Shown: piece after piece, positions 2,133 to 23,331 of the stretch
Numbering within the stretch: the stretch's first letter is position 1
Layout of the letters: each line of letters starts with the position of its first letter
Assembly (NCBI GenBank): GCA_002772695.1
Contig: PFDI01000003.1
Coordinates: forward strand, 11,914-75,913
Source: Candidatus Pacebacteria bacterium CG10_big_fil_rev_8_21_14_0_10_44_54
GTDB lineage: Bacteria; Patescibacteriota; Microgenomatia; UBA1400; PJMF01
Length of the DNA stretch: 64,000 bases
Direction: 5' to 3'
Notes under the pieces: generated by a model
Databases searched by the model: none
What the model was told of the DNA's origin: nothing
What the model saw: the letters and a program-made list of their open reading frames with translations, nothing else
Made by a program: the position numbers and the translations under genes

Positions 2133-2134
2133 AT

Positions 2135-4350: not shown

Positions 4351-4358
4351 TGCGTCTG

Positions 4359-5987
4359 ATGAAACGTCATCTTTTTTTCAAGTATAAATTTTTTCAACAC
4401 TGGCTGTTATTTCTGGTGATTCCAATTTTTTTTCTTCTTTTGCTTCGCAACCCTTTTTCCAACCGCAACCTCATCGCAAACCTCGGACCATTCCCAGACG
4501 TATTTCATTACATCACGGGCGCGCAGTGTTTCCTCGATGGTCAAGGGTTCTCTCTTTGCAGGCATAGCGAGAAGATTGACACAAGTGTGCCGCCTCTGTA
4601 CTCGGCACTGCTTCTACCATTTCTTCTCATCAATAACGACCCCCGCATGTTTTACTTTCTCAACCTTATACTGGCAACTTCGAGCTTGTTTCTCATGTAT
4701 CTTATCCTAAAAAAAATAGTGGTTAGAAACACACTTATCTTTTTGGGACTAGTGCTCTATGTGACAAGCTACCTGACATACTGGTACCCGACACTGGCAA
4801 TGGCAGAAAACCTACTCCTGCCAATTGTTTTATCACTCTTCTTCCTGCTGCTATACAAACCAAACAAAGCAAGAGCGGCACTTTTTGGGGCACTGGCTGT
4901 TGGAACCTATGCAAGTAAGTACTCGGCAGCGCCGATTACGCTCGGGTTTTTAGCCTTGTATGTGTGGCATATTGTCGGTAGTAACAAAAAGGGGAGAATA
5001 AACCTCTTGAGTGTGCTAGCCATGTGCGCACTGCTCGCGATCAGTGTGACCCAAAGCAGAAGCATTGTCACCAAGGGTCTTGATTTTTTTCAAAATACTA
5101 TTATCGCGCAAGTTAACCAAAATATTCCTGATCCACAAGCAAGACCTGATGTATGGATTAGTGCAGAGTACTTCGGCAGAAACATTGTTTTGTACGCCAA
5201 AACACTTCTCGGTTATACCGTGCTGATCCTTTGGCATCGAGATAGTTTTCTTTTACAACCGCTCTCGATTCTTGGTTTGCTGGGTATTGCTTTGGGAATA
5301 GTCAGAAAAAGTCGGTATCGTTTTTTCTTCTCGTCAATAGTAATAATTTTGACTTTGCAGATCGTCACACTCTCGTTTTTTTATTCATTTGAGAGTCGGT
5401 ATGTCTTGTATCTTCTGCCACTACAAATTGTCGGAGTAGTTTTTGCAGTACGGTTGTTGGTAGAAGTAGTGGCAAAATACTTCCCACGCATTCCAAGTTC
5501 TATTCTTTCTGCCAGTGTAGTGCTGCTTATTTTGGGTCTATATGCACTCAGTTCGACACAGCGCCTCCGACACCAGGTTGTACTCAACCTAAAGTATAGT
5601 GAGTCACCCTGGTGGTATTTGTCAGTGCAAGAACTGAATGTATTTTTTTCTGAAAAGGGTGAGGAAATCCCATTTGTTATCACGATTGTTCCGACCTATT
5701 TTGTTGACTACTACACAAATGCAAACTACGAGATTCTTCCCCTATCAAACCAACAAAGCTTCGAAAATGACCTGTATATGCTGAGCAAGCCAGAGAGCTT
5801 GGAGTTGGAAAATTGGTTCGAAATACTCTTGAGAGAAAATAAAAAATTGTTCGTGATGAACTATGGTCTTTCAGCAGAGGCTGGCTATCAATATGCGTTT
5901 GACCATCTCGAAGAGCTATACAAGGTAACAAAGCTTACCGAAGGTTGCTACAATACGTGCAATATCTACTCGCTCGAACTCAGGTAG
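4359..5987 (+). CDS. polytopic membrane protein, GT-C-like (PMT/ArnT-like) putative glycosyltransferase; paralogous to the middle and C-terminal blocks of the adjacent 6001-9141 product
   Basis: More than 10 predicted TM helices. The N-terminal loop PDVFHYITGAQCFLDGQGF resembles the DE..Y..A motif of GT-C PMT/ArnT enzymes. The C-terminal block LFVMNYGL...CYNTCNIYSL aligns with LFLSDYGL...CYDQCALLRV of the 6001 product. The ORF-track start at 4305 overlaps the divergent gene, so an internal Met at 4359 is preferred. Confidence 0.5.
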   Translation: MKRHLFFKYKFFQHWLLFLVIPIFFLLLLRNPFSNRNLIANLGPFPDVFHYITGAQCFLDGQGFSLCRHSEKIDTSVPPLYSALLLPFLLINNDPRMFYFLNLILATSSLFLMYLILKKIVVRNTLIFLGLVLYVTSYLTYWYPTLAMAENLLLPIVLSLFFLLLYKPNKARAALFGALAVGTYASKYSAAPITLGFLALYVWHIVGSNKKGRINLLSVLAMCALLAISVTQSRSIVTKGLDFFQNTIIAQVNQNIPDPQARPDVWISAEYFGRNIVLYAKTLLGYTVLILWHRDSFLLQPLSILGLLGIALGIVRKSRYRFFFSSIVIILTLQIVTLSFFYSFESRYVLYLLPLQIVGVVFAVRLLVEVVAKYFPRIPSSILSASVVLLILGLYALSSTQRLRHQVVLNLKYSESPWWYLSVQELNVFFSEKGEEIPFVITIVPTYFVDYYTNANYEILPLSNQQSFENDLYMLSKPESLELENWFEILLRENKKLFVMNYGLSAEAGYQYAFDHLEELYKVTKLTEGCYNTCNIYSLELR

Positions 5988-6000
5988 CAACCAAGCAATA

Positions 6001-9000
6001 ATGAAATCTACACCAAAGCTGCTTTTTTTTGTCTCTCTTTTCCTCCTTGCCTTCATCCCTTTGTACCCCAAAATCCCGCTGTTTGACATTCTGCCTGGTT
6101 ACATAGTTCGCGTCAGAGTAGAAGATATCCTGATGGTGATCGCAAGTGGCTTGTGGTTGTGGCACGCACTCAAAAACAAAACAAAGTGGCAAAGCGGCTA
6201 TCTTGGCATTATCGGACTCTATGCTGCTGTGGGAGTTTTTTCTATTGCCCTGGGCATTTTTCTACTCCAGACTATTCCCTTTGAAGTATTGCACATTGGC
6301 AAAAGTGCACTGCATTACTTTCGCTACCTTGAGTACTTCTCGCTCTTTTTTATAGCATTTTCTGGCATTCGCACCAAAAAACAAGCAACAAAGGCTGTGT
6401 TTGTACTCGCCGCTACTACATTTCTTATAATCATCTACGGTATTGGTCAAAAATACTTGCATTTTCCGCTGTACTCCACCATGAATAGAGAGTACAGCAA
6501 AGGCCAAGCCTTTTATCTTGAGGAGGGAGGCAAAATCAGCGCTACTTTTGGTGGGCATTATGACCTAGCCGCCTACCTCGTAATTATCTTACCGCTCCTT
6601 TTTTCTTTTTCGCTACAGTATCTAAAGAAATCAAAAGGCAAACTAGTGCTATTTGTCTGGCTCCAGACTATACATCTTGGTGGTGCTTGGCTCCTGTTAG
6701 AAACCGCCTCGAAAGCAGCTCTTATCGCCTACATCTTTGCTCTAGCGATCGTAATAGCGCTATACCTGAAAATGATTGCCAACAAACGACTTCGCACCCT
6801 GCTTTCTTCTGCAGCTTTACTTACATCAGCAGCAATTTTTTTTGCATTTCTTAGTCTTTTTGGTTCTCAAACCAAGATTCGATTTAGCAATCTCTACACC
6901 GCTTTGGTTAGCGACCAACAAAACCAAGACCCCAACGACCTAGTTGGAAACGGCTATGAATGGAAAACCTATACCCAGACATCTCCCGATGGTGAAGTCG
7001 TCACTACTAGAAAATTAGAAAAAAGTACCTGGTCACCAAATGCGCTGCGTTATGGCATTTCAATGGGAATTCGACTAGACACTCTCTGGCCACAGGCGCT
7101 CAAAGGACTCAGCAATAATCCGCTGTTTGGTAGTGGTTACGGTACACTATCCAAACTAGAGAACACACAATTTGTCGAGGCCGATAGTACCGATAACAAT
7201 TATCTCAGAACACTAGGTGAAACCGGATTACTTGGTTTTATCACCTTTTATGGCTTTGTTTTACTTGCCATGCGTCTTGTCTGGAATCAGCTAGAAAGAC
7301 ACAAAGGCATAACCCAAGCACTAAGTATTGGCTATCTTGGCGCAAGTCTCGGACTCCTAGTCAATGCTCTGTATATCGATGTTTTTGCTGCCTCCAAAGT
7401 CGCCTTTGTCTTTTGGGGAATAACTGGCTTTGTCCTGCGACTTGTTGCAAAGGAGCAGGGGAGTGATGCACTCAAAGCTATTCTCATGCACCTTGGCAAA
7501 CACAAAACGTTGTACGCCGCAGTTCTCTTGGCATTTTTCTTATTACAACAGAATCCTCTGGCGAATCACTCCAATCTACTCGCTTTTCATACTTCGACTC
7601 CTGCCTTCGAAAACTTTGTGGCTGCGCGCTGCTTCAGGCAGTCGTACTCATTTGCTCTTTGTCGCAATTCTGGCCTAATAACTGGCGAGCATTTTTCTTT
7701 CTACAGCATGTTGTTGCTGCCATTTTTGTGGTTGAGCAAGAATCCAGCAGTCTTTTATTACCTCAATCTCTCATTGGTTTTGACCACTCTCTTGCTGATG
7801 TACAAAAAACTAGGCATCAAGTCATTACTCTCACTACTACTCTTGGTAGTACTAGCCTATGAATACAACTTCACCGGCCAACCACTCGAAGACTCGCAGT
7901 TACTGCGACTAATGATTCTAGCCCCTGCCGCCATTTTGCTCTTACAAAAATTTATTCTTGCGGGAAAACATGCGCGCGTTGCAAAAGTTGTTCTGTATGG
8001 GGCACTCATGCTCTCTCCAGTCCTCTCTGCAAACTCAGGACAACGATTTCTAGAAAGTTTCCGCAATTCAGTTCAGGTGGTCAAACGAGATGCAGTTTTG
8101 CAAGCTAATTCCAGGCTTACTGCCGATGACTTTCTCATTACTGTACTTTCACCATACTATATTGATTTATTTAGCGACAAACCCTACCAAGTATTGCCAC
8201 TCTCACCGGCTCAGACCTACATGGATACACCAGAAAGAGTCTGGGGAGCTTATGACTTTTCCAATATGTATACGCTCTACGAGCGTCTGCTTGCCCAGGG
8301 CAAACAGTTATTTTTGTCAGATTATGGCTTGAATACCAATAAAGCTTTTTTCGAAGACTATGCTGCGCTGAGGCAGAACTTTGATGTTCGCTACGCCAAT
8401 CTAGATTGTTATGACCAGTGCGCGCTTTTGCGTGTCAACAAGTTGACCGAAAAAATCTCACCGCTACCTAGCTCAATTACAACAAAAAAACTTGAACCGA
8501 GTCTGCTCTCGAGTGAATACTCATTTGCCGTTATCTCAAATCGCTATGACAAAACAAACACTCAAACAGAGGTGGAGTATCTGGGCAAACTTGCAAACCA
8601 AAATGACGAATCATTTGCTTTTATGATTCTCACTGGAGATATTGTAAATAGCAAAGATTCTAGTGCTATTCAAACTGTAAACACGCTCTTTGCCAACCAA
8701 GCATCCTTTCCTGTACTCTACAGTCCGGGGAACTACGATCTCTTGCCAAGCAAGCCATATAATATAGCCAGCGAGCGATTCTATTCTGATCGAGATTATT
8801 TCATCCTACTGGATATAGGTCGCGACTCGGTGGCGACAAAACAGCAGCAATTATTTGTCTACAACGCATTGCTTGAGCTCGAGCAGTTGCCAAATATCCA
8901 AAATTTATTTATCATCTCGCATGACCTGAATTGGCAAGATCGTGATAATCCAAACAACTTCATTTTTGACCTTGAAGAAAAACTTGCTGCATTTCCAGAA

Positions 9001-9141
9001 CTAAAATCATACATTTTAACGGCGGATCATGCGCAAGCGGATACAAAAGAGAGTAGAAGTAAGTTTAATGGGAATAGTAAATATTATGCAAACACGCAAT
9101 CCGTCATTCGCGTAACCAAAAATGGTGAAATACTATTTTAG
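6001..9141 (+). CDS. 1046-aa multidomain membrane protein: N-terminal Wzy_C (O-antigen ligase/O-oligosaccharyltransferase-like) domain + GT-C-like paralogous segment + C-terminal degenerate calcineurin-like metallophosphoesterase-like domain
   Basis: Residues 1-480 are collinear with the 17769-19391 product (FIPLYPKIPLFDILPGYIVRVRVEDI, STMNREYSKG, IRLDTLWPQA, STDNNYLRTLGETGLLGF, a WaaL/Wzy_C HNxYLxxLxExG-type motif). Residues from about 530 are homologous to the N- and C-terminal blocks of the 4359-5987 product. The C-terminus carries MILTGDIVN...SPGNYDL...ISHD, which resembles MPE motifs II/III with His replaced by Tyr. Confidence 0.7.
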   Translation: MKSTPKLLFFVSLFLLAFIPLYPKIPLFDILPGYIVRVRVEDILMVIASGLWLWHALKNKTKWQSGYLGIIGLYAAVGVFSIALGIFLLQTIPFEVLHIGKSALHYFRYLEYFSLFFIAFSGIRTKKQATKAVFVLAATTFLIIIYGIGQKYLHFPLYSTMNREYSKGQAFYLEEGGKISATFGGHYDLAAYLVIILPLLFSFSLQYLKKSKGKLVLFVWLQTIHLGGAWLLLETASKAALIAYIFALAIVIALYLKMIANKRLRTLLSSAALLTSAAIFFAFLSLFGSQTKIRFSNLYTALVSDQQNQDPNDLVGNGYEWKTYTQTSPDGEVVTTRKLEKSTWSPNALRYGISMGIRLDTLWPQALKGLSNNPLFGSGYGTLSKLENTQFVEADSTDNNYLRTLGETGLLGFITFYGFVLLAMRLVWNQLERHKGITQALSIGYLGASLGLLVNALYIDVFAASKVAFVFWGITGFVLRLVAKEQGSDALKAILMHLGKHKTLYAAVLLAFFLLQQNPLANHSNLLAFHTSTPAFENFVAARCFRQSYSFALCRNSGLITGEHFSFYSMLLLPFLWLSKNPAVFYYLNLSLVLTTLLLMYKKLGIKSLLSLLLLVVLAYEYNFTGQPLEDSQLLRLMILAPAAILLLQKFILAGKHARVAKVVLYGALMLSPVLSANSGQRFLESFRNSVQVVKRDAVLQANSRLTADDFLITVLSPYYIDLFSDKPYQVLPLSPAQTYMDTPERVWGAYDFSNMYTLYERLLAQGKQLFLSDYGLNTNKAFFEDYAALRQNFDVRYANLDCYDQCALLRVNKLTEKISPLPSSITTKKLEPSLLSSEYSFAVISNRYDKTNTQTEVEYLGKLANQNDESFAFMILTGDIVNSKDSSAIQTVNTLFANQASFPVLYSPGNYDLLPSKPYNIASERFYSDRDYFILLDIGRDSVATKQQQLFVYNALLELEQLPNIQNLFIISHDLNWQDRDNPNNFIFDLEEKLAAFPELKSYILTADHAQADTKESRSKFNGNSKYYANTQSVIRVTKNGEILF

Positions 9142-9146
9142 GCACC

Positions 9147-10115
9147 TTAGTTCGAAAATGAGTCTCGCACTCTCCGCAACCCCTCGGCAAACGACACTTT
9201 TGGCGACCAATTGAGCAGCGCTCTAGCTTTTGTTATGTCTGGCTTTCGTCGAGTCGGATCATCCCCAGGTAAATCTTTAAACAAGAGTTCTAAACCTGGT
9301 TTTTCAAATGCGTTCTTGACGAGTTCTGCCGTTTGGATCGCTGTATGTTCTTCATTGGGATTGCCCAAATTGATTGTTTCTCCAGCTAAGTTTTGTAGTG
9401 TTCCCATGAGTAAAATCCCCTCGACTAGATCAGAAACATAACAGAATGAGCGAGTTTGCGAGCCGTCACCGTAAACAGTAAGAGGATGGTCAGAACGTAC
9501 TTGTGCGATGAAGTTGGGGATAATACGACCATCCGCCAAGTCCATTCGCGGACCGTAGGTATTAAAAATACGTACGATACGAACATCCATACCAAAGTCT
9601 CGTGTATGGACTCCGCAGATTGTTTCGCCCAAACGTTTGGCTTCGTCATAGCAAGAGCGCACGCCATTTGGATTGACATTACCCCAATAGCTTTCTGACT
9701 GTGGGTGCTCTGTAGGATCGCCATACACCTCGGAAGTACTGGCAAAAATAAATCTAGCTTGCGACGCTCTGGTCTTGAGATACTGCAAGAGATAATGGGT
9801 ACCGATCGAGTTGACCAAATAGGTTTCTACAGGATGCGCCTGATACCTGGGAGGGCTCGCAGGCGAAGCGAGGTGATAGACTACATCTGGCTCCAACAAC
9901 TTGGGAAGATAATTAGCAGCAGGCTGAGAAACATCTGCTCTAATAAAATGAAAATCGCTATTACTTTCAAGATGGTCTAAATTTTTGGCTTGACCTGTGA
10001 TAAAGTTATCTATGCCATAAACCGAATAACCTTGCTTTAGTAGCGCATCACACAAATGCGAGCCGACAAATCCTGCGACTCCGGTTATTACTGCTGTTTG
10101 GTTGCTACGGTTCAT
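9147..10115 (-). CDS. UDP-glucuronate decarboxylase (UDP-xylose synthase)-like NAD-dependent epimerase/dehydratase
   Basis: VITGVAGFVGSHLCDAL (GxxGxxG), YDEAKR (YxxxK) and RIFNTYGPRM, which is characteristic of UXS/ArnA-type decarboxylases. Confidence 0.85.
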   Translation of the reverse strand: MNRSNQTAVITGVAGFVGSHLCDALLKQGYSVYGIDNFITGQAKNLDHLESNSDFHFIRADVSQPAANYLPKLLEPDVVYHLASPASPPRYQAHPVETYLVNSIGTHYLLQYLKTRASQARFIFASTSEVYGDPTEHPQSESYWGNVNPNGVRSCYDEAKRLGETICGVHTRDFGMDVRIVRIFNTYGPRMDLADGRIIPNFIAQVRSDHPLTVYGDGSQTRSFCYVSDLVEGILLMGTLQNLAGETINLGNPNEEHTAIQTAELVKNAFEKPGLELLFKDLPGDDPTRRKPDITKARALLNWSPKVSFAEGLRRVRDSFSN

Positions 10116-10149
10116 ACAGATATTCTAACGTATTAGAAAAGGTAAAACT

Positions 10150-10377
10150 ATGCCCGTAGTTGAAATTAAGAATGCATCTTTTGAGCTACTTATGGAAATA
10201 TACACCCAAGAGCTTCGGCGCCTACTTAGTTCAGAAGGAAATAACATCGACCCAGATTACATTGCCTCCATGCTAGAACGTTCACGATTGGAACAACATC
10301 AAAAAATGTTACTGCATCTAGAACTGGAAAAAAAATTACCGGAATTGCGTAAAGCAGCAAATCAAAATAGCACTTGA
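10150..10377 (+). CDS. hypothetical small helical protein (75 aa)
   Basis: ORF only. Its stop overlaps the start of the next gene. Confidence 0.3.
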   Translation: MPVVEIKNASFELLMEIYTQELRRLLSSEGNNIDPDYIASMLERSRLEQHQKMLLHLELEKKLPELRKAANQNST

Positions 10378-11876
10378 ACTCTACACTCTCTATAATGGAG
10401 TTCGTGCAATCATTTCTTAATCGTTCACGCTTGTTATTGCTACTAATTTTGGCGCTTGCGATACTTCTCCGCCTCCCACACCTCTCTGGCTCATTCTGGC
10501 TCGACGAAGCCGCCCAAGCACTCGAAAGCACACGGCCACTGTCGCAACAACTCGATATAGTGGCAGACTTTCAACCACCGCTGCTACACCTCATTACGCA
10601 TGTGGCTAGTTATGCATCGCACACCGAGTGGTGGCTAAGAACCGCCGGCGCACTAGTTCCTGGCTTGCTGACGATTGCGATCTTGTACTTATTTCTAGAG
10701 CGTGCCGCAAACAAAAAAACGGCGACGATTGCTGCAGCTCTACTTGCTACCTCCTCACTACACATCTATTTTTCTCAAGAATTGCGTCCGTACTCACTGC
10801 CTACCTTGTTTGCTGTTGCATCATGGTGGGCACTGTACGAGCAGCGTTGGCGCTGGTTTACCACCCTCACAATAGCAGGCCTCTACAGCTCATACCTTTA
10901 CCCATTTTTACTGATAGCACAGACAATTTGGTTACTACTAAATACAAAAAAATATAAGCAACTTGTCGTCTCCCTAGTAATCAGCACAGCCTGTTTTATT
11001 CCATGGCTGCCAACCTTTTTTGCACAGTTGCAAGCAGGGCAACTCCTTCGCAATGAACTGCCTGGTTGGGAAAGTACTGTCAGCATTTCACAAGAAAAAG
11101 CACTACAGTTGGTGATGGGGAAGTTTATTTTCGGCCTGAGCGATCTTTCTTTTTCTCTACCATATCTTGCTACTGGCTCGTTTGTCGTACTAAGCTTGAT
11201 TAGTTTGCTATTGTTTTCCTGGCAAAAAAAGGTAAAAAGGCAGCAAAAAGTACTCATGTTACTGCTATTCTGGGCAGGAGCACCACTTGCATTTGCTTGG
11301 CTGGCATCTTGGTTTGTGCCCGTAGTTGAGCCCAAGCGACTCTTACTCTCGCTCGCTGGATTTTATGGTCTAGCCAGCTATCTATTTGTACTTTCACTGC
11401 CGCAAAAAAATGCGATAGCAAAAAAACTCGCTACACTGCTTATTGCTATGCTATTTATTATAAATATCTCGAGTACTATCAGATATTTTATCGACAAATC
11501 ATTCCAACGAGAAGACTGGCGTGGAATCATTCGCAAAATAGAACAAACTTATCCGGCACAAAACACGATTGCTGTCTTTATTTTCCCCGAAGCTTTTGCT
11601 CCTTGGCTTTGGTATGCCTCTCCAGATATTACTACCATCAGTACAAAAGCAATCTATGTTGACAACACCACGCCGCTTCGTGATTTGCTTGAGCCAACAC
11701 TTGACTACGACTACATACTTATGTTTGACTACTTACAAGATCTCACCGACCCCAATCGATTGGTAGCAGCTGAGCTACAAAAGTTTGGTTTTGAGGAAAC
11801 TGGCTCGTTTTCTGCGCCAAACGTAGGTTTTGCCAGAATTTTTAGTAAACAAAATACCGCTGTAGATCAAGGATAG
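10374..11876 (+). CDS. GT-C family glycosyltransferase, PMT_2/ArnT-like (GT39/GT83-like) polytopic membrane protein
   Basis: LLLLILALAILLRLPHLSGSFWLDEAAQALES (the DE..A loop after TM1 is typical of PMT_2/ArnT), followed by multiple TM helices and a soluble C-terminal domain. Confidence 0.7.
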   Translation: MNSTLSIMEFVQSFLNRSRLLLLLILALAILLRLPHLSGSFWLDEAAQALESTRPLSQQLDIVADFQPPLLHLITHVASYASHTEWWLRTAGALVPGLLTIAILYLFLERAANKKTATIAAALLATSSLHIYFSQELRPYSLPTLFAVASWWALYEQRWRWFTTLTIAGLYSSYLYPFLLIAQTIWLLLNTKKYKQLVVSLVISTACFIPWLPTFFAQLQAGQLLRNELPGWESTVSISQEKALQLVMGKFIFGLSDLSFSLPYLATGSFVVLSLISLLLFSWQKKVKRQQKVLMLLLFWAGAPLAFAWLASWFVPVVEPKRLLLSLAGFYGLASYLFVLSLPQKNAIAKKLATLLIAMLFIINISSTIRYFIDKSFQREDWRGIIRKIEQTYPAQNTIAVFIFPEAFAPWLWYASPDITTISTKAIYVDNTTPLRDLLEPTLDYDYILMFDYLQDLTDPNRLVAAELQKFGFEETGSFSAPNVGFARIFSKQNTAVDQG

Positions 11877-11881
11877 CTGAC

Positions 11882-13036
11882 ATGTCACAACCACTCGCCG
11901 TCGGCATCGATATCACTTCTGTGTTGTATGGCAGGGGGGTATCACGCTATACGACCAATTTGACCAGGCACTTGCTGGCAAATAACCGAGTCAAAATGAG
12001 TTTGTACGGCTCCTCACTTCGACAAAAATCTGAACTCGAGCGAATTGCTAAAGAACTCAAGGCGGCCACGGAGCGAAAGGCTCATACTGTCATTCGTAAC
12101 TACCCACCATCGCTGTATAATTTTCTTTGGAACAAACTTGGCTACCCCAAAATTCGCGCTGCTTTCCCAGAAATTTCTCTCTTCCACTCATGGGACTGGT
12201 TGCAACCACCAGACAAAGATTTGCCACTAATCTCAACCATCCACGACCTAGCAATGCTGAAGTATCCCGAAACTGCCCATCCGCAAATTCTCAGCATGCA
12301 TCAAAAATCTTGGGATATTCTCAAAGATCGCGGCGCACATATTATTGCGGTTAGTCGGGCAACCAAAACCGACATTATTTCTTTTTTAGGAATACCGAGT
12401 GAGAGAATACATGTAGTACATGAAGCCCTACCGGACGAAGTGGTACTGACAAGTAAACACCTCACTGAGGAAAGATACGAGACTATCAAAACTAGCTTTG
12501 CACTACACAAACCGTTTGTATTATTTGTCGGCAGCAGAGAACCGCGAAAAAATCTTTCTCGCCTGATTGCCGCATGGCAGTCTCTGCAGATTCCCGACTT
12601 AGAATTACTCATTGCTGGGAGTGTTGGTTGGGACAAAACCAAAGACATGGATGCGATTCCCGGACTTCGTTTTCTCGATCGGGTCAGCGATGAAGCGCTA
12701 TCAGTACTGTATGGTGAAGCAAGCGTTTTTGCTTTTCCCTCATTGTATGAAGGTTTTGGTCTTCCGATATTGGAAGCGTTTCACCACGGTACACCTGTGG
12801 TTACTTCAAACTGCTCAAGCATGCCAGAGGTAGCGGGCAATGCAGCCGAGTTTGTCGATCCTCATTCCGAGGAAAGTATTGCGCTTGGACTCAAAAAAAT
12901 ACTCAATGAAAAAATTCCCGAGCAACAACTTCGCCTACAAAAAATGATCATCAGGTCGCAGATGTTCAGCTGGCAGCGTGTGGCAGAACAAACTATCACA
13001 GCCTACGAACAAACTGTTCAGTCATTTGTGTCATAA
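11882..13036 (+). CDS. glycosyltransferase family 4
   Basis: YEGFGLPILEAFHHGTPVVTSNCSSMPEVAGNAAEFVDP. Confidence 0.8.
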   Translation: MSQPLAVGIDITSVLYGRGVSRYTTNLTRHLLANNRVKMSLYGSSLRQKSELERIAKELKAATERKAHTVIRNYPPSLYNFLWNKLGYPKIRAAFPEISLFHSWDWLQPPDKDLPLISTIHDLAMLKYPETAHPQILSMHQKSWDILKDRGAHIIAVSRATKTDIISFLGIPSERIHVVHEALPDEVVLTSKHLTEERYETIKTSFALHKPFVLFVGSREPRKNLSRLIAAWQSLQIPDLELLIAGSVGWDKTKDMDAIPGLRFLDRVSDEALSVLYGEASVFAFPSLYEGFGLPILEAFHHGTPVVTSNCSSMPEVAGNAAEFVDPHSEESIALGLKKILNEKIPEQQLRLQKMIIRSQMFSWQRVAEQTITAYEQTVQSFVS

Positions 13037-13042
13037 TAAATC

Positions 13043-14209
13043 ATGGCTACCTACCGCATAGCAATAGACGGCAATGAGGCTAATGTAGTCGATCGTGTTG
13101 GCAGCAACACTTATGCGTATGAACTACTGGTCGCGCTCGAGCAACAACTTGCCAAACAAGCAAATTGGCAGATCACAGTTCTGCTCACACAGCATCCATG
13201 CAGCGACATGCCGCTAGAGCGTCCTGGCTGGAAGTATGTTGTAGTTCGACCAAAACAATTCTGGACACAATGGGCGCTGCCTCGTTTTTTGTATCAGCAC
13301 CGAAGTAATTTTGATTTGTTTTTTACACCCGGCCATTACGCTCCCCGACACGCTCCGTTACCCTATATTTCTGCGGTACTAGACCTTGCCTTTCTTTCGC
13401 ACCCCGATTCTTTCACACTGCGCGACAGACTGCAGCTCTCCTACTGGACTAAGTACAGCGTTAAAAACGCCAAAAAAATCATAACTATTAGCCATGCAAG
13501 TAAAACAGAAATTGCTGCTACATATAAAATTCCTCCAGAAAACATAGCTGTTTGTTATCCAGCTATTGGCATAATCCAAAAACCAACTTTGCAAGAAGCG
13601 GCCAAAGATCTCAAAAAATTTGCTATTACAAAGCCATTCTTTATTTCTCTTGGAACAATTCAGCCGAGAAAAAACCTCATTAAACTAATTGAAGCTTTCG
13701 AAAGCTACTCACGAAAACAACAAGGTCTAGCCAAACAAACAAAGGCAAAACAACATAACTTAGTACTAGCGGGCAAGGAAGGCTGGCTGGCAGCACCAAT
13801 TCTCAAGCGTATTGCAGCATCTCCATTCAAAGAATTGATTATAGTGACTGGTTTCATCACAACAAAAGAAAAATGGTCGCTACTTCGCTCGGCTACTGCT
13901 GTTGTCATTGTCGGACTGAAAGAAGGTTTTGGCATACCTGCACTCGAGGCACTCGAAGCAAACACAATTCCTGTTGTCGCCAATGCGGCAAGTTTGCCAG
14001 AAGTAGTCGGCGAGTCAGGAATTTTGGTAGATCCACACAACACTCTAGATATAGCCGATGGTTTGTGGAAGGCTGCAACGCTCAAAGCGCGGGAAAAAGC
14101 TGTGCTCAAAAAAAAGGGAAGAGAACAAAAAACTCTCTTCAGTTGGAAAAACACCGCTCAACATGTACAGGATCTCTGGCAAAGTGTGCTCACAAAGAAA
14201 CAAGTGTGA
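13043..14209 (+). CDS. glycosyltransferase family 4
   Basis: KEGFGIPALEALEANTIPVVANAASLPEVVGESGILVDP. Confidence 0.8.
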   Translation: MATYRIAIDGNEANVVDRVGSNTYAYELLVALEQQLAKQANWQITVLLTQHPCSDMPLERPGWKYVVVRPKQFWTQWALPRFLYQHRSNFDLFFTPGHYAPRHAPLPYISAVLDLAFLSHPDSFTLRDRLQLSYWTKYSVKNAKKIITISHASKTEIAATYKIPPENIAVCYPAIGIIQKPTLQEAAKDLKKFAITKPFFISLGTIQPRKNLIKLIEAFESYSRKQQGLAKQTKAKQHNLVLAGKEGWLAAPILKRIAASPFKELIIVTGFITTKEKWSLLRSATAVVIVGLKEGFGIPALEALEANTIPVVANAASLPEVVGESGILVDPHNTLDIADGLWKAATLKAREKAVLKKKGREQKTLFSWKNTAQHVQDLWQSVLTKKQV

Positions 14210-14691
14210 TAACAATTCTCGCTATTGACCCAGGATATGACCGTCTCGGTTGGGCAGTTGTATCGGTCGACGACCGCAAGCTTTTACTGCGAGCATACAA
14301 CTGTATTGTGACTGATCGAGCCAAAAACTTGGCCGAAAGAATTCAACAAATCACTACCGAGCTTGAAGAAATAATTGCGAGTCAACAGCCGCAAGAACTT
14401 GCCATCGAAACACTCATTTTTGCTCGTAACACAACTACTGCACTCAAAGTAAGTGAGGTGCGTGGAGCAATTATCGCCACAGCAAATACCCATAACTTAG
14501 TAATTCACCAGTACAATCCTGGTACTATTAAGCTAGCTATCGCAGGGCATGGCAAAGCTGATAAGCGAGCAGTTGATAAAATGTTGCGCCTGCTCATACC
14601 AGATATAGGCAAAGTACTGCACGATGATACAATGGATGCAATCGCAATCGCAGTAACTCACGCGCTTGCAGTTCACCATCTGCAACTCTGA
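14206..14691 (+). CDS. ruvC: crossover junction endodeoxyribonuclease RuvC
   Basis: ITILAIDPGYDRLGWAVV...ETLIFARNTTTALKVSEVRGAII...DAIAIAVTHA. The GTG start is embedded in the upstream stop (GTGA). The track ORF 13873-14691 is an upstream extension of this frame that overlaps the preceding GT4 gene. Confidence 0.85.
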   Translation: MITILAIDPGYDRLGWAVVSVDDRKLLLRAYNCIVTDRAKNLAERIQQITTELEEIIASQQPQELAIETLIFARNTTTALKVSEVRGAIIATANTHNLVIHQYNPGTIKLAIAGHGKADKRAVDKMLRLLIPDIGKVLHDDTMDAIAIAVTHALAVHHLQL

Positions 14692-14693
14692 TT

Positions 14694-15269
14694 ATGATCG
14701 CATTTCTTACTGGCACACTCCATCAAGTCGGGACTCCACTCATCCTTCTGGTTGGCGGTGTCGGCTATAGTGTACGAGTAGCAGAAAAACATCAATCTCT
14801 CTGGAGCGTTGGTCAAAATTTATCACTGTGGATCCATACCCACGTTGCCGAGACAAAGTTTGAGTTATTCGGTTTTCCAGACCAAAAAGAGAAGGAACTA
14901 TTTTTACTTTTACTCCAAGTGTCTGGAGTAGGCCCAAGCACTGCCTTGCAGTTGGGGGCGATCGGAAGTGAAAAAATCTCACAGGCGGTTCGCGACGGGG
15001 CTGTGCGCACATTTACTCAAGTTCCTCGGGTGGGAAAGAAATTAGCACAAAAAATAATCATAGAGCTTGGCAGCAAGCTTGGGGCAATAGAAGAACTACA
15101 ACTAGGTACACTCGATACTGATCGCGCACTACTGCTCGAGGCTCTGCTTTCACTTGGATATGAAGAACAACGTGTATACGACGTAGTCCGCAAAACAAAT
15201 ATGGACAACCAAACGCTGGAGCAAGCACTCAAACAAACCATGCAAACAATTGGAACAACGAAAACATGA
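14694..15269 (+). CDS. ruvA: Holliday junction DNA helicase RuvA
   Basis: MIAFLTGTL...LLVGGVGYSV...ELFLLLLQVSGVGPSTAL. Confidence 0.85.
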   Translation: MIAFLTGTLHQVGTPLILLVGGVGYSVRVAEKHQSLWSVGQNLSLWIHTHVAETKFELFGFPDQKEKELFLLLLQVSGVGPSTALQLGAIGSEKISQAVRDGAVRTFTQVPRVGKKLAQKIIIELGSKLGAIEELQLGTLDTDRALLLEALLSLGYEEQRVYDVVRKTNMDNQTLEQALKQTMQTIGTTKT

Positions 15270-16258
15270 CACAAGCTCCTTCCCAATTACAAACACCAGA
15301 AGAAGTAGAGCTTTTTTCTAACCTGAGAGCACAAACATGGGCTGAATTTTATGGTCAAGACACGGTCAAAAAATCTCTTACCATTGCGATAGAAGCTGCG
15401 CGCAATCGAGCCGAACCACTTGATCACTTACTGCTATATGGGCCCCCAGGTCTTGGCAAAACGACACTTTGCCACTTGATTGCCAGTGAACTCAACGTAC
15501 AAACCAAAATTACTTCTGGCACGGCCTTGACAAAGGTCGGGGATTTGGCTGCCATTATTACCAATCTTAACCCAGGCGACATCTTGTTTATTGATGAAAT
15601 TCACCGCTTGCCAAAAGCTGTAGAAGAAACTCTGTACCCTGCCATGGAGGATTACGCACTAGATGTAGTCATTGGCAAAGGACCAACAGCCCGATCTATC
15701 CGACTTGATTTACCCAAGTTTACACTTGTTGGTGCTACCACAAAATTTGGCTTGCTATCTGGTCCATTTCGAGATCGGTTTGGCATTATTCATCGTCTTT
15801 CTTACTATAAATCACTCGCATTACAAACAATCTTGATGCGTTCGGCAGAAAAACTCCATGTTAGACTGCGTGAATCTGGCGCTATTGCGATCGCACAACG
15901 CTCTAGAGGCACCCCTCGAATTGCTCTCAAATTACTGAAACGAGTGCGAGATTATCTCGAAGTACACAACCAAACCGAAATTTCTGGTGAGCTTGTACAA
16001 AAAGCACTTGATCTTTTTGAAATTGATCAGTTGGGTCTTGATGATAGCGACCGACGTCTTATTGAGCTCATCATTGGCAAACACCAAGGTGGTCCGGTAG
16101 GACTAAGTACGCTTGCGGCGGCGTTAAATGAAGATACTGTCACAATCGAGGAAGTGATTGAACCATACCTCATGCAGATTGGTTTTCTCAAACGAACCAC
16201 ACAGGGCAGAATGACGACAGAAGCTGCCAAAAAGCACCTCAACAACTCAAATGCTTAG
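15266..16258 (+). CDS. ruvB: Holliday junction DNA helicase RuvB
   Basis: LLYGPPGLGKTTL (Walker A), ILFIDEIHRL (Walker B) and a C-terminal winged-helix domain. Confidence 0.95.
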   Translation: MTQAPSQLQTPEEVELFSNLRAQTWAEFYGQDTVKKSLTIAIEAARNRAEPLDHLLLYGPPGLGKTTLCHLIASELNVQTKITSGTALTKVGDLAAIITNLNPGDILFIDEIHRLPKAVEETLYPAMEDYALDVVIGKGPTARSIRLDLPKFTLVGATTKFGLLSGPFRDRFGIIHRLSYYKSLALQTILMRSAEKLHVRLRESGAIAIAQRSRGTPRIALKLLKRVRDYLEVHNQTEISGELVQKALDLFEIDQLGLDDSDRRLIELIIGKHQGGPVGLSTLAAALNEDTVTIEEVIEPYLMQIGFLKRTTQGRMTTEAAKKHLNNSNA

Positions 16259-16277
16259 GCGTATACTGAGGGCAACT

Positions 16278-16862
16278 ATGACTGTTTGGCAAAAAATCCA
16301 ACGTCGAATCACTACAATTTGGCTCGAACTAGCAACTGGGTTTTTGTGGTGGGGCGTTGGCGTAGTCCCACTACATCACGTCCGACGATTCTTTTATCGC
16401 TTGTTTGGTATGCAAATCGGATCAGGCTCGACACTTCATATGGGAGCGCGTATCTACGATCCACGACATATTTATATTGGAAAAGACAGCATAATCGGAG
16501 AAAAAGTTACACTCGATGGGAGAAGACAACTAGAAAACTCACGAGGTGGTATCACCATCGGCGACCATGTTGATATTGCTTCGGAAGTCATGATCTGGAC
16601 AAGTGAGCATGATATTTCCAGCACTGACTTTGCCCCTATTGAAGAGCCTGTGACGATTGGTGATTATGTATTTATTGGTCCTCGGGCAATCATTTTGCCA
16701 GGAGTAACAATTGCTCATGGTGCGGTGATTGCTGCGGGAGCAGTCGTAACCAAAGATGTGGCGGCACACAGTATTGTCGGTGGTGTCCCTGCCAAAGCAA
16801 TTGGACAGAGAGCACAAAACAACTTGCAGTACCGCTTGGGTAGGGCCCGTTGGTTCCAATAA
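16278..16862 (+). CDS. left-handed beta-helix (hexapeptide repeat) acetyltransferase, WcaF/LacA-like
   Basis: IGDHVDIASEVMIWTSEHD...IGDYVFIGPRAIILPGVTIAHGAVIAAGAVVTKDV. The start is taken at the internal ATG that follows a TATACT -10. Confidence 0.75.
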   Translation: MTVWQKIQRRITTIWLELATGFLWWGVGVVPLHHVRRFFYRLFGMQIGSGSTLHMGARIYDPRHIYIGKDSIIGEKVTLDGRRQLENSRGGITIGDHVDIASEVMIWTSEHDISSTDFAPIEEPVTIGDYVFIGPRAIILPGVTIAHGAVIAAGAVVTKDVAAHSIVGGVPAKAIGQRAQNNLQYRLGRARWFQ

Positions 16863-16867
16863 ATTCC

Positions 16868-17764
16868 ATGCGCGTTTCAATTCTCATCGTCTCGTACAAT
16901 ACAAAAGAGCTCACCCTGCAAACCTTGCAGAGCGTTATTGCCTCACTTTCTCAATCAATCCTGTTGCAAAACAATTCAGAAATTATTGTCGTTGACAACA
17001 ACTCGAGAGATGAAAGTCTCGCAGCAATCAAACAGCTTGCAACAGCTTCTGCTATCCCAATTACGCTGCTGGCAAATACCAAAAATACCGGCTTTGCCCA
17101 TGCCAACAACCTCGCTATCGCCAAAGCTACTGGCAAGGTGCTTCTGCTACTTAATTCAGACACGCTCGTGCCACAAGGTGCGATTACTCGCCTCTATGAG
17201 AGACTCATGCAATCTGATTCCAAGCATCTGGGTATTCTTGCTGCTAACCTACGCAACCTTGATGGTAGTCCACAACCGCAGGGTGGAGCGCTACCAAACC
17301 TCATAACGCTCACCAATCATATGCTGATGCTTGATGACTTACCGCTCATCGGAAAATTTCTGCCATCTACCCAAAATCAAAAATTTCAAGGTTGGGTAGC
17401 TGCTACCGCCATGGCAATTAAAAAGTCAGTTATCGATGAAATCGGAACACTCGACGAAAATATCTTTATGTACGGAGAAGATGTAGAGTTTTGTCTGCGC
17501 GCTCGGCACCACCACTGGGATGTAGCAATTTCACCTGACGCAGTAATCACTCACATCCAAGCTGCAAGCTCCAACCAGAAAAATGCAGTACTCGGAGAAA
17601 TCAAAGGCTATCAATACATTTGGGCAAAGCATATGCCACTTTGGCAGCGGCCGGTTGTTAACACCATACTTCGCCTGGGCATACTACTTCGCTGGCTGCT
17701 ATTTGCTACAATAGGCAGGACAGAGCAATCCCGACTGTATCGCAGTCTCTTGTCTCAGGTCTAA
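16868..17764 (+). CDS. glycosyltransferase family 2
   Basis: MRVSILIVSYNTKELT...IIVVDNNSRDESL...LLLNSDTLV...YGEDVEFCLR. Confidence 0.8.
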   Translation: MRVSILIVSYNTKELTLQTLQSVIASLSQSILLQNNSEIIVVDNNSRDESLAAIKQLATASAIPITLLANTKNTGFAHANNLAIAKATGKVLLLLNSDTLVPQGAITRLYERLMQSDSKHLGILAANLRNLDGSPQPQGGALPNLITLTNHMLMLDDLPLIGKFLPSTQNQKFQGWVAATAMAIKKSVIDEIGTLDENIFMYGEDVEFCLRARHHHWDVAISPDAVITHIQAASSNQKNAVLGEIKGYQYIWAKHMPLWQRPVVNTILRLGILLRWLLFATIGRTEQSRLYRSLLSQV

Positions 17765-17768
17765 CTGT

Positions 17769-19391
17769 ATGCCTACCTCCAAAACAATCCTTGGCTGGAT
17801 CGATCACAATCTCTTACTTGTTCTCAGTGGATTCTTGCTCGCGTTTATCCCACTCTATCCCAAGTTACCACTGTTTGACTTGATTCCAGGTTATCTCGTG
17901 CGAGTTCGAGTAGAAGATATTTTTATAGCACTTACTATACTTTTTTGGCTCATCCAGTTAGCCAGAAAAAAAGTAACCTGGAAAATTCCCATAGCAAAAT
18001 TGCTTGGTCTGTATTTGCTGGCAGGATTTGCTTCGTTACTCAGTGCAGTGTTTATTACCAAAACCATTCCTTTTGAGGTTCTGCATCTAGGCAAATCTGT
18101 CTTGCATTTACTAAGATATCTCGAATACTTCGCACTTTTCTTTATCATTTTTTCAAGTATAAAAACAAAGCATCACTTGCGCATTTTACTGCTGACCGGC
18201 TTCATAACGCTCTTGGCTGTGGCCGCCTATGGTGTCGGACAACGCTACTTCTACTGGCCAGTCTACTCGACCATGAATAGAGAGTTTAGCAAAGGACTCA
18301 GACTCTACCTCACCCCACATGCACGAGTACAATCAACTTTTGGCGGTCATTATGATCTTGGAGGCTACCTCGTCATCACCCTACCATTTGTCCTAGCCGC
18401 CCTATATAGCTTCACAAAGAAAAAAGAAAAAATTGCGCTCTTTGTTTTATTTTACTTTGGTATCTGGTTGATTACTGTCTCTGCCTCACGAGCCTCATTT
18501 GGTTCACTCTTGCTTGCTTTACTCATAGTTGTACTACTTTTTGCGATCCAGAAAAAAACCTGGCTAAAGAGGACAACCTGGTTTTTCCGCCAGACAAGCC
18601 TACTCACACTTGGAACGTCGGTCGTGCTCGTGTTCTTTGGTCAAGATATGTACGAGAGATTACTACAAATTTTGGATGGTTATCCTCTGGCTCACACAGC
18701 GTATGAGCAAGTAGATACAAAGAGAAAAGAATTTCTGCATTTTCTACCTCAGTTTCAAGTCGAAAAACCAGAAAACGCGCTTTCAACAGAAGAAGCAGCG
18801 GTTATGGTAGCTTCGGATACACGACCAACACCCCAAAGACCAAGTGACGTTTATGTTAATGTTCCCGACCATAAATTAGTCGCTACGGTGTCGGCAGAGG
18901 GGATCGAGTCTATGATACTAGTAGAGGTTGAGCGAACATACTCACAAAATGCGCTCGAGCGAGGACTTTCGCTCGCTATTCGTCTTGATACACTTTGGCC
19001 ACAAGCAATTGCCGGGTTTCAAAAAAACCCACTACTTGGTACGGGATACGCCACGCTAACCAAGGAGAGTGTTCAGCAATTTACCGAAGCCGAAAGCACT
19101 GATAACAACTATTTACGAACACTCGGCGAAACAGGCCTTGCTGGTTTTCTATTCTTTTACGGTAGCATTATCACCGCACTCTGGCTCTCATTGCGCACGC
19201 TACGACGTGTAGACCAACAACTCGCCCCAATCGAAAAAATTATCCTTGTTGGTTTTATTGCTGGCTCAATTGGCTTGCTACTCAATGCTACCTATATTGA
19301 TGTATTTGTAGCTTCCAAAATAGCCTACATATTTTGGGCAAATACGGGTATGGCAATGGCAGTTTACCTCTGGTATCATAATGAAAAATAA
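17769..19391 (+). CDS. Wzy_C family membrane protein (O-antigen ligase / O-oligosaccharyltransferase-like), paralog of the N-terminal domain of the 6001-9141 product
   Basis: FIPLYPKLPLFDLIPGYLVRVRVEDI, STMNREFSKG, IRLDTLWPQAIAGFQKNPLLGTGYATL and STDNNYLRTLGETGLAGF. Confidence 0.75.
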   Translation: MPTSKTILGWIDHNLLLVLSGFLLAFIPLYPKLPLFDLIPGYLVRVRVEDIFIALTILFWLIQLARKKVTWKIPIAKLLGLYLLAGFASLLSAVFITKTIPFEVLHLGKSVLHLLRYLEYFALFFIIFSSIKTKHHLRILLLTGFITLLAVAAYGVGQRYFYWPVYSTMNREFSKGLRLYLTPHARVQSTFGGHYDLGGYLVITLPFVLAALYSFTKKKEKIALFVLFYFGIWLITVSASRASFGSLLLALLIVVLLFAIQKKTWLKRTTWFFRQTSLLTLGTSVVLVFFGQDMYERLLQILDGYPLAHTAYEQVDTKRKEFLHFLPQFQVEKPENALSTEEAAVMVASDTRPTPQRPSDVYVNVPDHKLVATVSAEGIESMILVEVERTYSQNALERGLSLAIRLDTLWPQAIAGFQKNPLLGTGYATLTKESVQQFTEAESTDNNYLRTLGETGLAGFLFFYGSIITALWLSLRTLRRVDQQLAPIEKIILVGFIAGSIGLLLNATYIDVFVASKIAYIFWANTGMAMAVYLWYHNEK

Positions 19392-20826
19392 CCTTCCCTT
19401 CCTCCTGATAATCAGCACCGCTTTTTTGCTCAGATTGCCACACATCACTAGTCCCGTGCTTGATTGGCACAGCTTCAGACAAGCAGATACGGCCTCAGTG
19501 ACGTACGAGTATGTGAGAAATGGCGTCGATCTCTTACATCCAAAGTTTCATGATTTTTCCAACATTGCTTCTGGCAAAGACAATCTTGCTGGCTATCGTA
19601 TGGTCGAGTTTCCTTGGATTAATGGCTTGTTAGCCAGCATACTGCGGTTTGCTCCGAATCTTTCACTCGTGGTACTCAGCAGAGGTTTTACCATCGCGCT
19701 TTCACTGGTCACGCTCAGCAGTTTGTATTTTTTTGTCAAACTATTTTCAGACAAAAAAACTGCGCTGCTTGCCGCAATGACTTTCGCAGTTTTGCCATAT
19801 GCGGTTTTTTATAGTCGAGTTATCTTGCCAGACCCTGTTATGATAGCCCTGGCAACTGCATCGGTGACTCTTTTTGCCTACTGGCTGCACTCGAGACACT
19901 GGCGTTACTATGCTGCTTCTTTCTTGCTACTCGCTCTTGCCGCACTTACGAAGCCGTTTGTTCTGTTTTTGGCACCTGTGTACGTATCTTTGTTATTCGT
20001 TCAGTTTCTAAAAAAAAAGCTAGTATGGCAGCAAGTTTTTTGGACTATGATGCTACCAAGCAGCTTGCTGCCGCTGTGGTGGTGGCGAGATTGGATTTTG
20101 CAATTTCCCTCAGGTATTCCTGCCTCAGACTGGCTCTACAATGGTCCTATTAATGAAGTGCCTCCGCGTCTGCGACCAGTCTGGTTTCGCTGGCTCTGGT
20201 ACGAGCGATTATCTAAGTTAATCCTAGGGTATACCGGTACTGTGCTGCTGATACCACTTCTCCTGCGTTGGAAAAAAATCTCTACGCCAGAATTGTTCGT
20301 GTATGGCTCTTGGTGGTTGAGTGTCCTGCTTTTTTTTGTCGTTATAGCCCGGGGTAACATCCAGCACGATTACTATCAAGTTTTTACCCTACCAATAATT
20401 TGCATCTCTGTCGCAAAAGGAGTCAGGCTGCTATTTGCGTGGCTACAACACAAACTACACAAAAAAATTGCCATTACACTGACTGTCGCTCTGTATCTTT
20501 CAATGCTATTGCTCTCCCTACAACAAGTTGTCGGCTACTACCAAATCAATCACTGGGAGTATTATCGAGTTGGACAACGAGCACAAGCAGTGTTGCCAGA
20601 AGAAGCTATTGTTGTGGCACCTGCTTTTGGCGACACCTCATTCCTCTTTCAAACACGCCGCCGCGGCTGGCCAATTGGCTTCGAAATTGAAAAAAAAGTT
20701 GCAGCTGGCGCCCAATACTACATCACGACGACTTATGATGATGAAGCAAAAACGCTAGAATCAACTTATGAGTTAATCGAAAAAACACCAGAGTATCTTA
20801 TTTTAAATTTACAGAATACCTTATGA
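19381..20826 (+). CDS. GT-C family glycosyltransferase, PMT_2/ArnT-like polytopic membrane protein
   Basis: LRLPHITSPVLDWHSFRQADTASVTYEY (PMT-like loop) and about 11 TM helices. Confidence 0.7.
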   Translation: MKNNLPFLLIISTAFLLRLPHITSPVLDWHSFRQADTASVTYEYVRNGVDLLHPKFHDFSNIASGKDNLAGYRMVEFPWINGLLASILRFAPNLSLVVLSRGFTIALSLVTLSSLYFFVKLFSDKKTALLAAMTFAVLPYAVFYSRVILPDPVMIALATASVTLFAYWLHSRHWRYYAASFLLLALAALTKPFVLFLAPVYVSLLFVQFLKKKLVWQQVFWTMMLPSSLLPLWWWRDWILQFPSGIPASDWLYNGPINEVPPRLRPVWFRWLWYERLSKLILGYTGTVLLIPLLLRWKKISTPELFVYGSWWLSVLLFFVVIARGNIQHDYYQVFTLPIICISVAKGVRLLFAWLQHKLHKKIAITLTVALYLSMLLLSLQQVVGYYQINHWEYYRVGQRAQAVLPEEAIVVAPAFGDTSFLFQTRRRGWPIGFEIEKKVAAGAQYYITTTYDDEAKTLESTYELIEKTPEYLILNLQNTL

Positions 20827-23327: not shown

Positions 23328-23331
23328 TCAG

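Follow-up and report, generated by a model that had tools for sequence, protein, structure and literature searches.

The DNA analysed here is a 64,000-nucleotide stretch (the window) of contig PFDI01000003.1 from the assembly GCA_002772695.1 of Candidatus Pacebacteria bacterium CG10_big_fil_rev_8_21_14_0_10_44_54, with a G+C content of ~43%. Open reading frame (ORF) listing and Pfam scans, from which the gene content was derived, reveal a densely packed cluster between positions 765 and 29377, with most genes running in one direction. The cluster encodes two proteins with Wzy_C domains, and each of the two Wzy_C genes adjoins a gene for a protein with a GT-C fold: a gene that we call X precedes the gene for a 1046-residue fusion protein that begins with a Wzy_C domain (WzyA), and the gene for a stand-alone Wzy_C protein (WzyB) precedes the gene for PMT2. 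An initial annotation of the window, which placed these genes at positions borne out by the ORF listing and recognised their adjacency, interpreted the two pairs as one two-gene module duplicated in inverted order within the island. The features on which this interpretation depends are as follows.

4359–5987, forward strand: X, a polytopic membrane protein of 542 residues with a predicted GT-C fold
6001–7455, forward strand: WzyA, the Wzy_C (WaaL-like) domain of the 1046-residue fusion (residues 1 to ~485)
6049–6132, forward strand: motif AFIPLYPKIPLFDILPGYIVRVRVEDI in WzyA (residues 17–44), 82% identical at the amino acid level to residues 25–52 of WzyB
7456–8460, forward strand: X-prime, a truncated, degenerate copy of X (putative pseudo-GT-C; fusion residues ~486–820)
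8461–9141, forward strand: C-terminal domain of the fusion with a metallophosphoesterase fold (residues ~821–1046)
10374–11876, forward strand: PMT1, a PMT_2-type GT-C enzyme by Pfam, the third GT-C protein of the region, at a conserved position
17769–19391, forward strand: WzyB, a stand-alone Wzy_C paralog of 540 residues
17841–17924, forward strand: the same motif in WzyB (residues 25–52)
19381–20826, forward strand: PMT2, a PMT_2/PMT-type GT-C enzyme (PMT_2 35.1 bits, PMT 27.4 bits)

The Pfam Wzy_C profile (PF04932) matches the fusion with 40.2 bits, above the cutoff of 31.7, and WzyB with 31.2 bits (E 2.3e-7), marginally under it, and most homologs of the two carry a precomputed PF04932 match. 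WzyA and WzyB are paralogous, as the initial annotation proposed, with 40% identity over 512 columns (BLASTP E 2e-109) spanning the whole ~480-residue domain, and comparison of their family profiles with hhalign, built here and below from orthologues in the fetched loci, gives an E value of 5e-192. The near-identical stretch, which had been thought to cover the N-terminal 45 residues, does exist but comprises 28 residues, and the 16 to 24 residues that precede it differ between the two proteins. The positions of this motif are invariant in both Wzy families, the family invariants are conserved in both WzyA and WzyB, and both paralogs appear to be intact. Nucleotide identity is also retained, at 70% in the motif and 52% overall in a codon-level comparison, but it carries no sign of recency. 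In the motif the first, second, and third codon positions are 75%, 100%, and 36% identical, and the third position is 36% identical gene-wide as well, with a chance expectation of 26%. Because third-position identity is the same in the motif as across the gene, the nucleotide identity reflects purifying selection on the protein rather than recency, which leads us to reject both gene conversion of the motif and a recent duplication.

The loci compared with the window are the 80 best tblastn matches rather than a random sample; 74 loci from species-representative genomes were annotated, with 337 tblastn-confirmed stretches found there. WzyB is 100% identical to a hypothetical protein from a Candidatus Pacebacteria MAG (metagenome-assembled genome). 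Many WzyB orthologues in other genomes are 50–73% identical to WzyB, and orthologues of the fusion in its nearest relatives are 53–65% identical to it, compared with 40% between the two paralogs of the window. Neighbour joining of 121 Wzy domains places the fusion-type and stand-alone proteins in separate clades with no misplaced taxon (30 of 30 bootstraps). Since the locus is syntenic across many MAGs, the duplication that produced WzyA and WzyB predates the radiation of these lineages, and the split between them is ancient. Of the two Wzy_C proteins, the full-length fusion was modelled with AlphaFold2 (pLDDT 86.3, pTM 0.80). The model matches WaaL (7tpg_B) in Foldseek with an E value of 1.1e-6 and a target-normalised TM-score of 0.64, with FtsW as a weaker match, and from the 40% identity between WzyB and WzyA we infer a WaaL-like fold for WzyB as well.

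Gene X has no Pfam or NCBIfam match. Its longest ORF begins at position 4305, and the deposited protein (P0241) begins at 4359. Two of 50 members of the X family weakly touch the PMT_2 profile, and a search of the X profile against PDB sequences returned nothing useful. The AlphaFold2 model of X, built with 50 homologs, is confident (pLDDT 91.6, pTM 0.91) and has the transmembrane fold of GT-C enzymes; together with an invariant aspartate, D47, it shows that the initial description of X as GT-C-like was right. D47 is conserved in all 50 sequences and lies in the loop after the first transmembrane helix, between model helices 15–28 and 47–59, which would be the first extracytoplasmic loop. Further invariant residues are D94, R96, W142, E150, N151, K187, and R347, and a conserved pair of cysteines (C530 and C534) is located in a predicted extracytoplasmic alpha/beta domain at the C terminus. 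The family is small: out of 1.84 billion proteins, an exhaustive HMMER search recovered no more than 389 cluster representatives, and every named member is annotated as hypothetical and comes from Pacebacteria, Woesebacteria, Patescibacteria, or a MAG labelled as an unclassified 'bacterium'. Judged by its predicted structure, X is the founding member of an undescribed and unannotated family with the GT-C fold.

X and PMT2 do not show the similarity expected of a mirrored pair. BLASTP of X against PMT2 gives an E value of ~1, in contrast to 2e-109 for the two Wzy_C domains, and BLASTP of X against PMT1 also finds nothing. With hhalign, the X and PMT2 profiles match with 92.8% probability (E 4e-7), which is as remote as the match between PMT1 and PMT2 (94.1%, E 1.2e-7), and X against PMT1 is not significant (2.9% probability). 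A relationship of X and PMT2 as paralogs is consequently ruled out at the level of detectable sequence similarity, where their likeness is confined to superfamily-level profiles. Because BLASTP is blank and the profile match remote, while the Wzy pair keeps 40% identity, X and PMT2 represent different GT-C families and not co-duplicated copies, and the idea of a duplicated two-gene module does not survive.

The truly duplicated elements of the region, from sequence comparison, are WzyA/WzyB and X/X-prime. The middle part of the fusion matches X in BLASTP with E values of 5e-12 for an N-terminal piece and 2e-10 for a C-terminal piece, and the X family and the middle domain match in hhalign with 100% probability (E 1e-59). 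X-prime consists of transmembrane helices, the first-loop hairpin, and an alpha/beta domain of the X type at its C terminus, and positions ~175–350 of the X hidden Markov model are gone from nearly all fusions. In 46 middle domains, the residues D47, Y51, D94, R96, W142–N151, K187, and R347 of X are variable or deleted, while X-prime keeps P32, Y81, and N102, which are structural, and C530 and C534 of the alpha/beta domain. Fusion residues 486–820 therefore do not retain the catalytic-loop invariants of an active GT-C enzyme, and X-prime is best read as a pseudo-GT-C module. X proteins and middle domains form two clean clades (20 of 20 bootstraps), with median identities of 43% within X, 28% within the middle domains, and 23% between the two, and the X/X-prime duplication is also old.

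The C-terminal domain of the fusion scores 18.8 bits with the Pfam Metallophos profile (PF00149), under the cutoff of 21.5, and its Foldseek matches are purple acid phosphatase (1qfc) and LpxH. Of the motifs of calcineurin-like metallophosphoesterases (DxH, GD, GNH[DE], H, and GH), SNR[FY] stands in place of DxH, and conservation is limited to GD (G in 93% and D in 89% of sequences) and GN (83–85%), so that neither the full set of motifs nor the Pfam threshold is reached. An active phosphoesterase, for example one that recycles undecaprenyl diphosphate, was considered and is weakened by the loss of the histidine-containing motifs. The domain would be extracytoplasmic, because no transmembrane helix separates it from the disulfide-bearing domain. 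Each of the 120 best fusion homologs, whose alignments cover 54% or more of the query, has the three-part layout; homologs of ~1000–1270 residues with this layout are found in Pacebacteria, Woesebacteria, Roizmanbacteria, and Microgenomates. Fusions of WzyB with a PMT protein were sought as Rosetta-stone evidence, but at an E value of 1e-5 none of the 120 long homologs has a segment resembling PMT1 or PMT2. The X-derived module and the phosphoesterase-fold domain had both been missed by the initial annotation, as had the conserved gene order of ~29 kb described below.

Both PMT proteins are recognised by the PMT_2 profile (PF13231, cutoff 26.1), PMT2 with 35.1 bits and PMT1 with 26.3 bits, so that the further PMT-like gene reported at 10374 is upheld by a borderline score. 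The first-loop residues W42, D44, and E45 of PMT1 are conserved in at least 90% of its 47 orthologues, and D28, R33, and D36 are conserved in the first loop of PMT2, with D28 and D36 at 90% or more. With conserved acidic residues in their first loops, X, PMT1, and PMT2 are three GT-C-fold transferases that look active. The gene for the fusion starts 13 nt past X, and the WzyB and PMT2 genes overlap by 11 nt, which suggests coupled translation. Among the 38 loci that extend far enough downstream, 36 have PMT2 directly 3' of WzyB (median gap −4 nt), and in the other two, apparent exceptions, the next gene in order is again PMT2; GT2b, one of the cluster's glycosyltransferases, lies directly 5' of WzyB in 39 of 42 loci. 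Adjacency of X and the fusion is less regular, with the two genes side by side in 6 of 20 loci and 1–6 kb apart in 5 of 20; an intact X is usually found in the vicinity. The Wzy_C paralogs belong to separate old subfamilies, and the WzyB–PMT2 pairing is conserved across genomes and the X–fusion pairing partly so, which bears out half of the refutation named by the initial annotation, namely paralogs in unrelated subfamilies and a pairing lost from other genomes. The functional partnership of Wzy_C and GT-C proteins that was first suggested draws support from the WzyB–PMT2 overlap and adjacency and from the fusion of WzyA to an X-derived module in every one of the 120 homologs.

In loci without X, the slot upstream of the fusion often holds other polytopic proteins of 480–580 residues (positions 3769–5418 of locus L011, 6661–8103 of L012, and 4421–6115 of L013), with weak matches of GT-C type to PTPS_related/YfhO, GtrII, and PMT_2. 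Because these proteins are themselves weakly GT-C-like, they suggest that the GT-C slot upstream of the fusion is variable. Downstream of the fusion, the epimerase gene and PMT1 follow in 17 of 22 loci, with the epimerase gene within 3 kb.

The remaining genes of the cluster are listed below; the cluster as a whole includes an initiating phosphoglycosyltransferase, a GDP-mannose-forming enzyme, and ~10 cytoplasmic glycosyltransferases (GTs).

765–4350: GT2a and GT1a (forward strand) and a small methyltransferase-like gene (reverse strand), upstream conserved genes whose order is kept in loci L001, L005, and L058
9147–10115, reverse strand: NAD-dependent sugar-nucleotide epimerase/dehydratase between the fusion and PMT1 (Pfam Epimerase, E 1.9e-57)
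11882–14209, forward strand: the glycosyltransferases GT4a and GT4b, from Pfam and synteny
14215–16258, forward strand: ruvC-ruvA-ruvB inside the glycan operon, from Pfam, with gaps of −4 to 5 nt
16251–17764, forward strand: a hexapeptide O-acetyltransferase and GT2b, directly 5' of WzyB
20823–29377, forward strand: GT4c, GT2c, h145, GT4d, GT4e, a mannose-1-phosphate guanylyltransferase-like protein, a Bac_transf phosphoglycosyltransferase, and a DUF4012 protein, in an order kept in syntenic loci

From PMT1 to the Bac_transf gene, neighbouring genes are separated by no more than 7 nt or overlap, and 40 nt then lead to the DUF4012 gene. The epimerase/dehydratase scores under every NCBIfam equivalog cutoff. 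Two proteins of the cluster were noted in addition: h145 (22890–23327), with 145 residues, two transmembrane helices, a lysine-rich tail, and no known family, which about half of the syntenic loci have at the same place, and the DUF4012 protein (27401–29377), with 658 residues and a single N-terminal transmembrane helix, which ends the cluster after Bac_transf in most syntenic loci that reach that far. Upstream, the left edge of the window truncates an ORF (1–690, reverse strand) that resembles S-adenosylmethionine (SAM)-dependent methyltransferases; in L001, a close relative, GT2a is preceded by a methyltransferase, a 680-residue unknown protein, and an ABC exporter (ABC2_membrane and ABC_tran).

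Several features were noted elsewhere in the window. A complete dcw cluster lies directly downstream at 32722–48239 (mraW, ftsI, Mur ligases, murB, murA, mraY, ftsW, murG, ftsA, and ftsZ), with an unexpected CofD-like gene (36868–37848) between two of its Mur ligase genes. A second SEDS protein (FtsW/RodA family) is encoded outside dcw at 51073–52131, directly 3' of the gene for a 937-residue class I tRNA synthetase. A Wzx-type flippase (Polysacc_synt_3) is encoded at 55412–56638, and beside it, within 55412–58407, are a truncated-looking GT2 of 216 residues and a polytopic protein of 398 residues (57211–58407) that has fragments of Wzy-like motifs and no Pfam match. The latter was considered as a third Wzy paralog and rejected, since hhalign relates it to the WzyB family with only 1.9% probability. 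Three tRNA genes (Thr-CGT, Gly-CCC, and Asp-GTC) lie at 60220–60594 on the reverse strand.

The order of genes from GT2a to DUF4012 (~29 kb, with ruvCAB inside) recurs in four homolog neighbourhoods and dozens of loci, and ruvCAB is embedded at the same place in ~45 loci of other Patescibacteria genomes. Distances between cluster proteins correlate with distances between RuvB proteins, with r values of 0.5–0.8. Because the cluster proteins track RuvB in this way, the cluster appears to be inherited vertically. Many of the records that contain the locus (L006, L010, L017, and others) are titled 'uncultured Pseudomonadales bacterium', and one 'Flavobacteriaceae', titles that are probably taxonomic mislabels.

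The closest parallels to the individual proteins are found in well-studied systems. The fusion shares with WaaL (7TPG) and other Wzy_C proteins its Pfam match, a superposable model of the N-terminal part, a polytopic build, and a large extracytoplasmic loop. In contrast to WaaL, the Wzy_C proteins described here have no sequence-level match to any PDB chain, and one of the two paralogs carries two extra domains. Each of them may be a ligase, a polymerase, or a protein O-oligosaccharyltransferase. The host is presumably a monoderm bacterium of the candidate phyla radiation (CPR) without lipid A, and the acceptor must for that reason differ from that of WaaL. X shares only 8–12% sequence identity with ArnT (5F15), ALG12/ALG9, PglB/STT3, and PMT1/2. 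The GT-C heterodimer Pmt1–Pmt2 (6P2R) offers an analogy for inactive paralog domains as partners of active enzymes, and the likeness lies in a GT-C-derived module that here occurs alongside an intact paralog encoded next door. However, both Pmt subunits are regarded as active, and the pairing of X with the fusion is a proposal.

Glycosylation systems of several membrane components, as in GtrABC, CsbB/GtcA/YfhO, and ArnC/ArnT, resemble the locus in that genes for GT-C enzymes lie beside GT2 genes (GT2b-WzyB-PMT2 and PMT2-GT4c-GT2c). Here, however, GT2b and GT2c have no transmembrane helix, and the GT2 proteins score 28.7 bits against an ArnC cutoff of 529. Of the parts of a GtrABC-like system, GT-C enzymes are present and a Wzx-type flippase lies 35 kb from them, but neither a GT2 with transmembrane helices nor a GtrA-family match was found, and the similarity to ArnC is sub-threshold, so that a classic three-component system is not evident here. 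In the wall glycans of monoderm bacteria, a polymerase of lipid-linked repeats and a GT-C transferase encoded in one cluster cooperate outside the membrane, with examples in the Lactococcus lactis pellicle (polymerase WpsI and GT-C enzyme WpsJ) and in the model of the Bacillus anthracis wall polysaccharide (Wzx/Wzy and GtsC) (PMC9574508; PMC8035078). The likeness of these systems to the locus is one of role and clustering, with no homology claimed. WpsI is itself described as having a GT-C fold and not as a Wzy_C protein, and neither system has a counterpart of the fusion architecture. No GtrA-type flippase, WpsA/B-like pair, or LCP ligase was found in the cluster.

Taken together, the region is probably the core of a vertically inherited envelope-glycan assembly locus of ~29 kb in Pacebacteria, Woesebacteria, and other Microgenomates-type Patescibacteria, with no recent internal duplication. 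Its likely role is the assembly of envelope glycans outside the membrane from polyprenol-linked donors. In such a process, cytoplasmic assembly of glycans on undecaprenyl phosphate would fall to the Bac_transf enzyme and the GT2 and GT4 enzymes, and the glycans would then be exported, with the Wzx-type flippase at 55412–56638 and the ABC exporter found upstream in the close relative as candidates. On the outer side of the membrane, the diphosphate-linked glycans would be polymerised or ligated by the Wzy_C enzymes, and the same product or its acceptor would receive sugars that the GT-C enzymes take from monophosphate-linked donors. The dead GT-C module, along with the atypical phosphoesterase-fold domain, could serve as a docking or substrate-holding scaffold and possibly pair with active X. 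We tentatively extend this scheme to a further possibility, which we consider less probable than not: that the 1046-residue protein forms the centre of an extracytoplasmic complex for glycan assembly, specific to CPR bacteria, that physically couples Wzy_C ligation or polymerisation with GT-C sugar addition. With the same reserve, its dead X-like module and phosphoesterase-fold domain might recruit X, or the GT-C protein in the variable slot, and the substrate linked to a lipid diphosphate.

A number of points weigh against the main interpretation of the region. The structures are predictions, the trees are simple distance-based neighbour-joining trees, and the genes of the other loci come from our own ORF calling and BLASTP against the proteins of the window. 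A search with the WzyB profile against PDB sequences gave no match, even to WaaL, and in the cluster we identified neither a GtrA-type flippase nor a membrane-anchored GT2 to feed the GT-C enzymes. X is not always next to the fusion, and in 9 of 20 loci the available flank lacks it. The co-evolution between partners that the initial annotation had suggested looking for is present as a mirror-tree signal but is not pair-specific, with RuvB-controlled mirror-tree partial correlations of 0.44 for WzyB–PMT2, 0.49 for WzyB–GT2c, and 0.35 for WzyB–GT4c; specific co-evolution of WzyB with PMT2 was rejected on these values. With conservation extending over the whole operon, adjacency by itself is not enough to mark out the pairs.

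These last points bear on the strongest alternative, which we consider improbable without being negligible, in which the proteins have no specific partnership. The genes would then be neighbours only because envelope genes are packed into one long operon in the compact genomes of CPR bacteria, and the Wzy_C and GT-C enzymes would act on separate products; for example, PMT2 could serve as a protein O-mannosyltransferase and WzyB could polymerise a polysaccharide of the wall. The presence of ruvCAB in the same operon shows that unrelated functions are packed together, the mirror-tree signal is not specific to pairs, and the slot upstream of the fusion differs between genomes, with other GT-C-like genes or none. 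However, the neighbours other than ruvCAB are all glycan-synthesis genes, the WzyB and PMT2 genes overlap and are adjacent in almost every locus compared, and the covalent linkage of Wzy_C to an X-derived module is kept in all of the best homologs of the fusion.

It is unlikely, and more so than the absence of a partnership, that a pair ordered Wzy_C then GT-C was duplicated long ago with its gene order kept. In that scenario, one copy stayed as the separate genes for WzyB and PMT2, the other fused to give WzyA and X-prime, and X arose later from X-prime by splitting off or by duplication. If the fused X-like module is counted, both copies do run from Wzy to GT-C; X is remotely related to PMT2 and undetectably so to PMT1, and the weak PMT_2 matches of the two X family members fit as well. 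Yet the middle domain matches PMT2 with only 16.8% probability in hhalign, PMT1 and PMT2 are as similar to each other as X is to PMT2, so that the pair is not singled out, and the GT-C parts would have diverged past detection by BLAST while the Wzy domains kept 40% identity. Finally, duplication of a [GT-C][Wzy_C] module with inversion and divergence within the island, as first proposed, is already contradicted as a recent event and can be dismissed as highly improbable: the GT-C-fold neighbours of both Wzy_C paralogs and their shared 28-residue motif speak for it, but X and PMT2 are alike only at the superfamily level that also links PMT1 to PMT2, the two Wzy clades are ancient with orthologues elsewhere closer than the paralog in the window, third-codon identity in the motif is that of the rest of the gene, and the locus is syntenic in many genomes.

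The enzymology proposed for the envelope-glycan locus is of known kinds, Wzy_C and GT-C, and the X family, the three-domain architecture of the fusion, and the supercluster containing ruvCAB appear to be undescribed. A search of the literature on CPR bacteria with O-antigen ligase or GT-C proteins found no description of the locus, the X family, or the fusion, and we know of no Wzy_C/GT-C machine of this kind in any cultured bacterium. CPR bacteria (Patescibacteria) depend on surface contact with their hosts, and to our knowledge their envelopes are almost uncharacterised. The locus, the X family, and the protein that combines Wzy_C, pseudo-GT-C, and phosphoesterase-fold domains offer concrete targets for structural work and heterologous expression, and hundreds of MAG proteins that currently carry the label 'hypothetical' or 'O-antigen ligase family' could be better annotated with their help. 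In these bacteria, a deeply conserved envelope-glycan locus adjoins the cluster for cell division and peptidoglycan synthesis.

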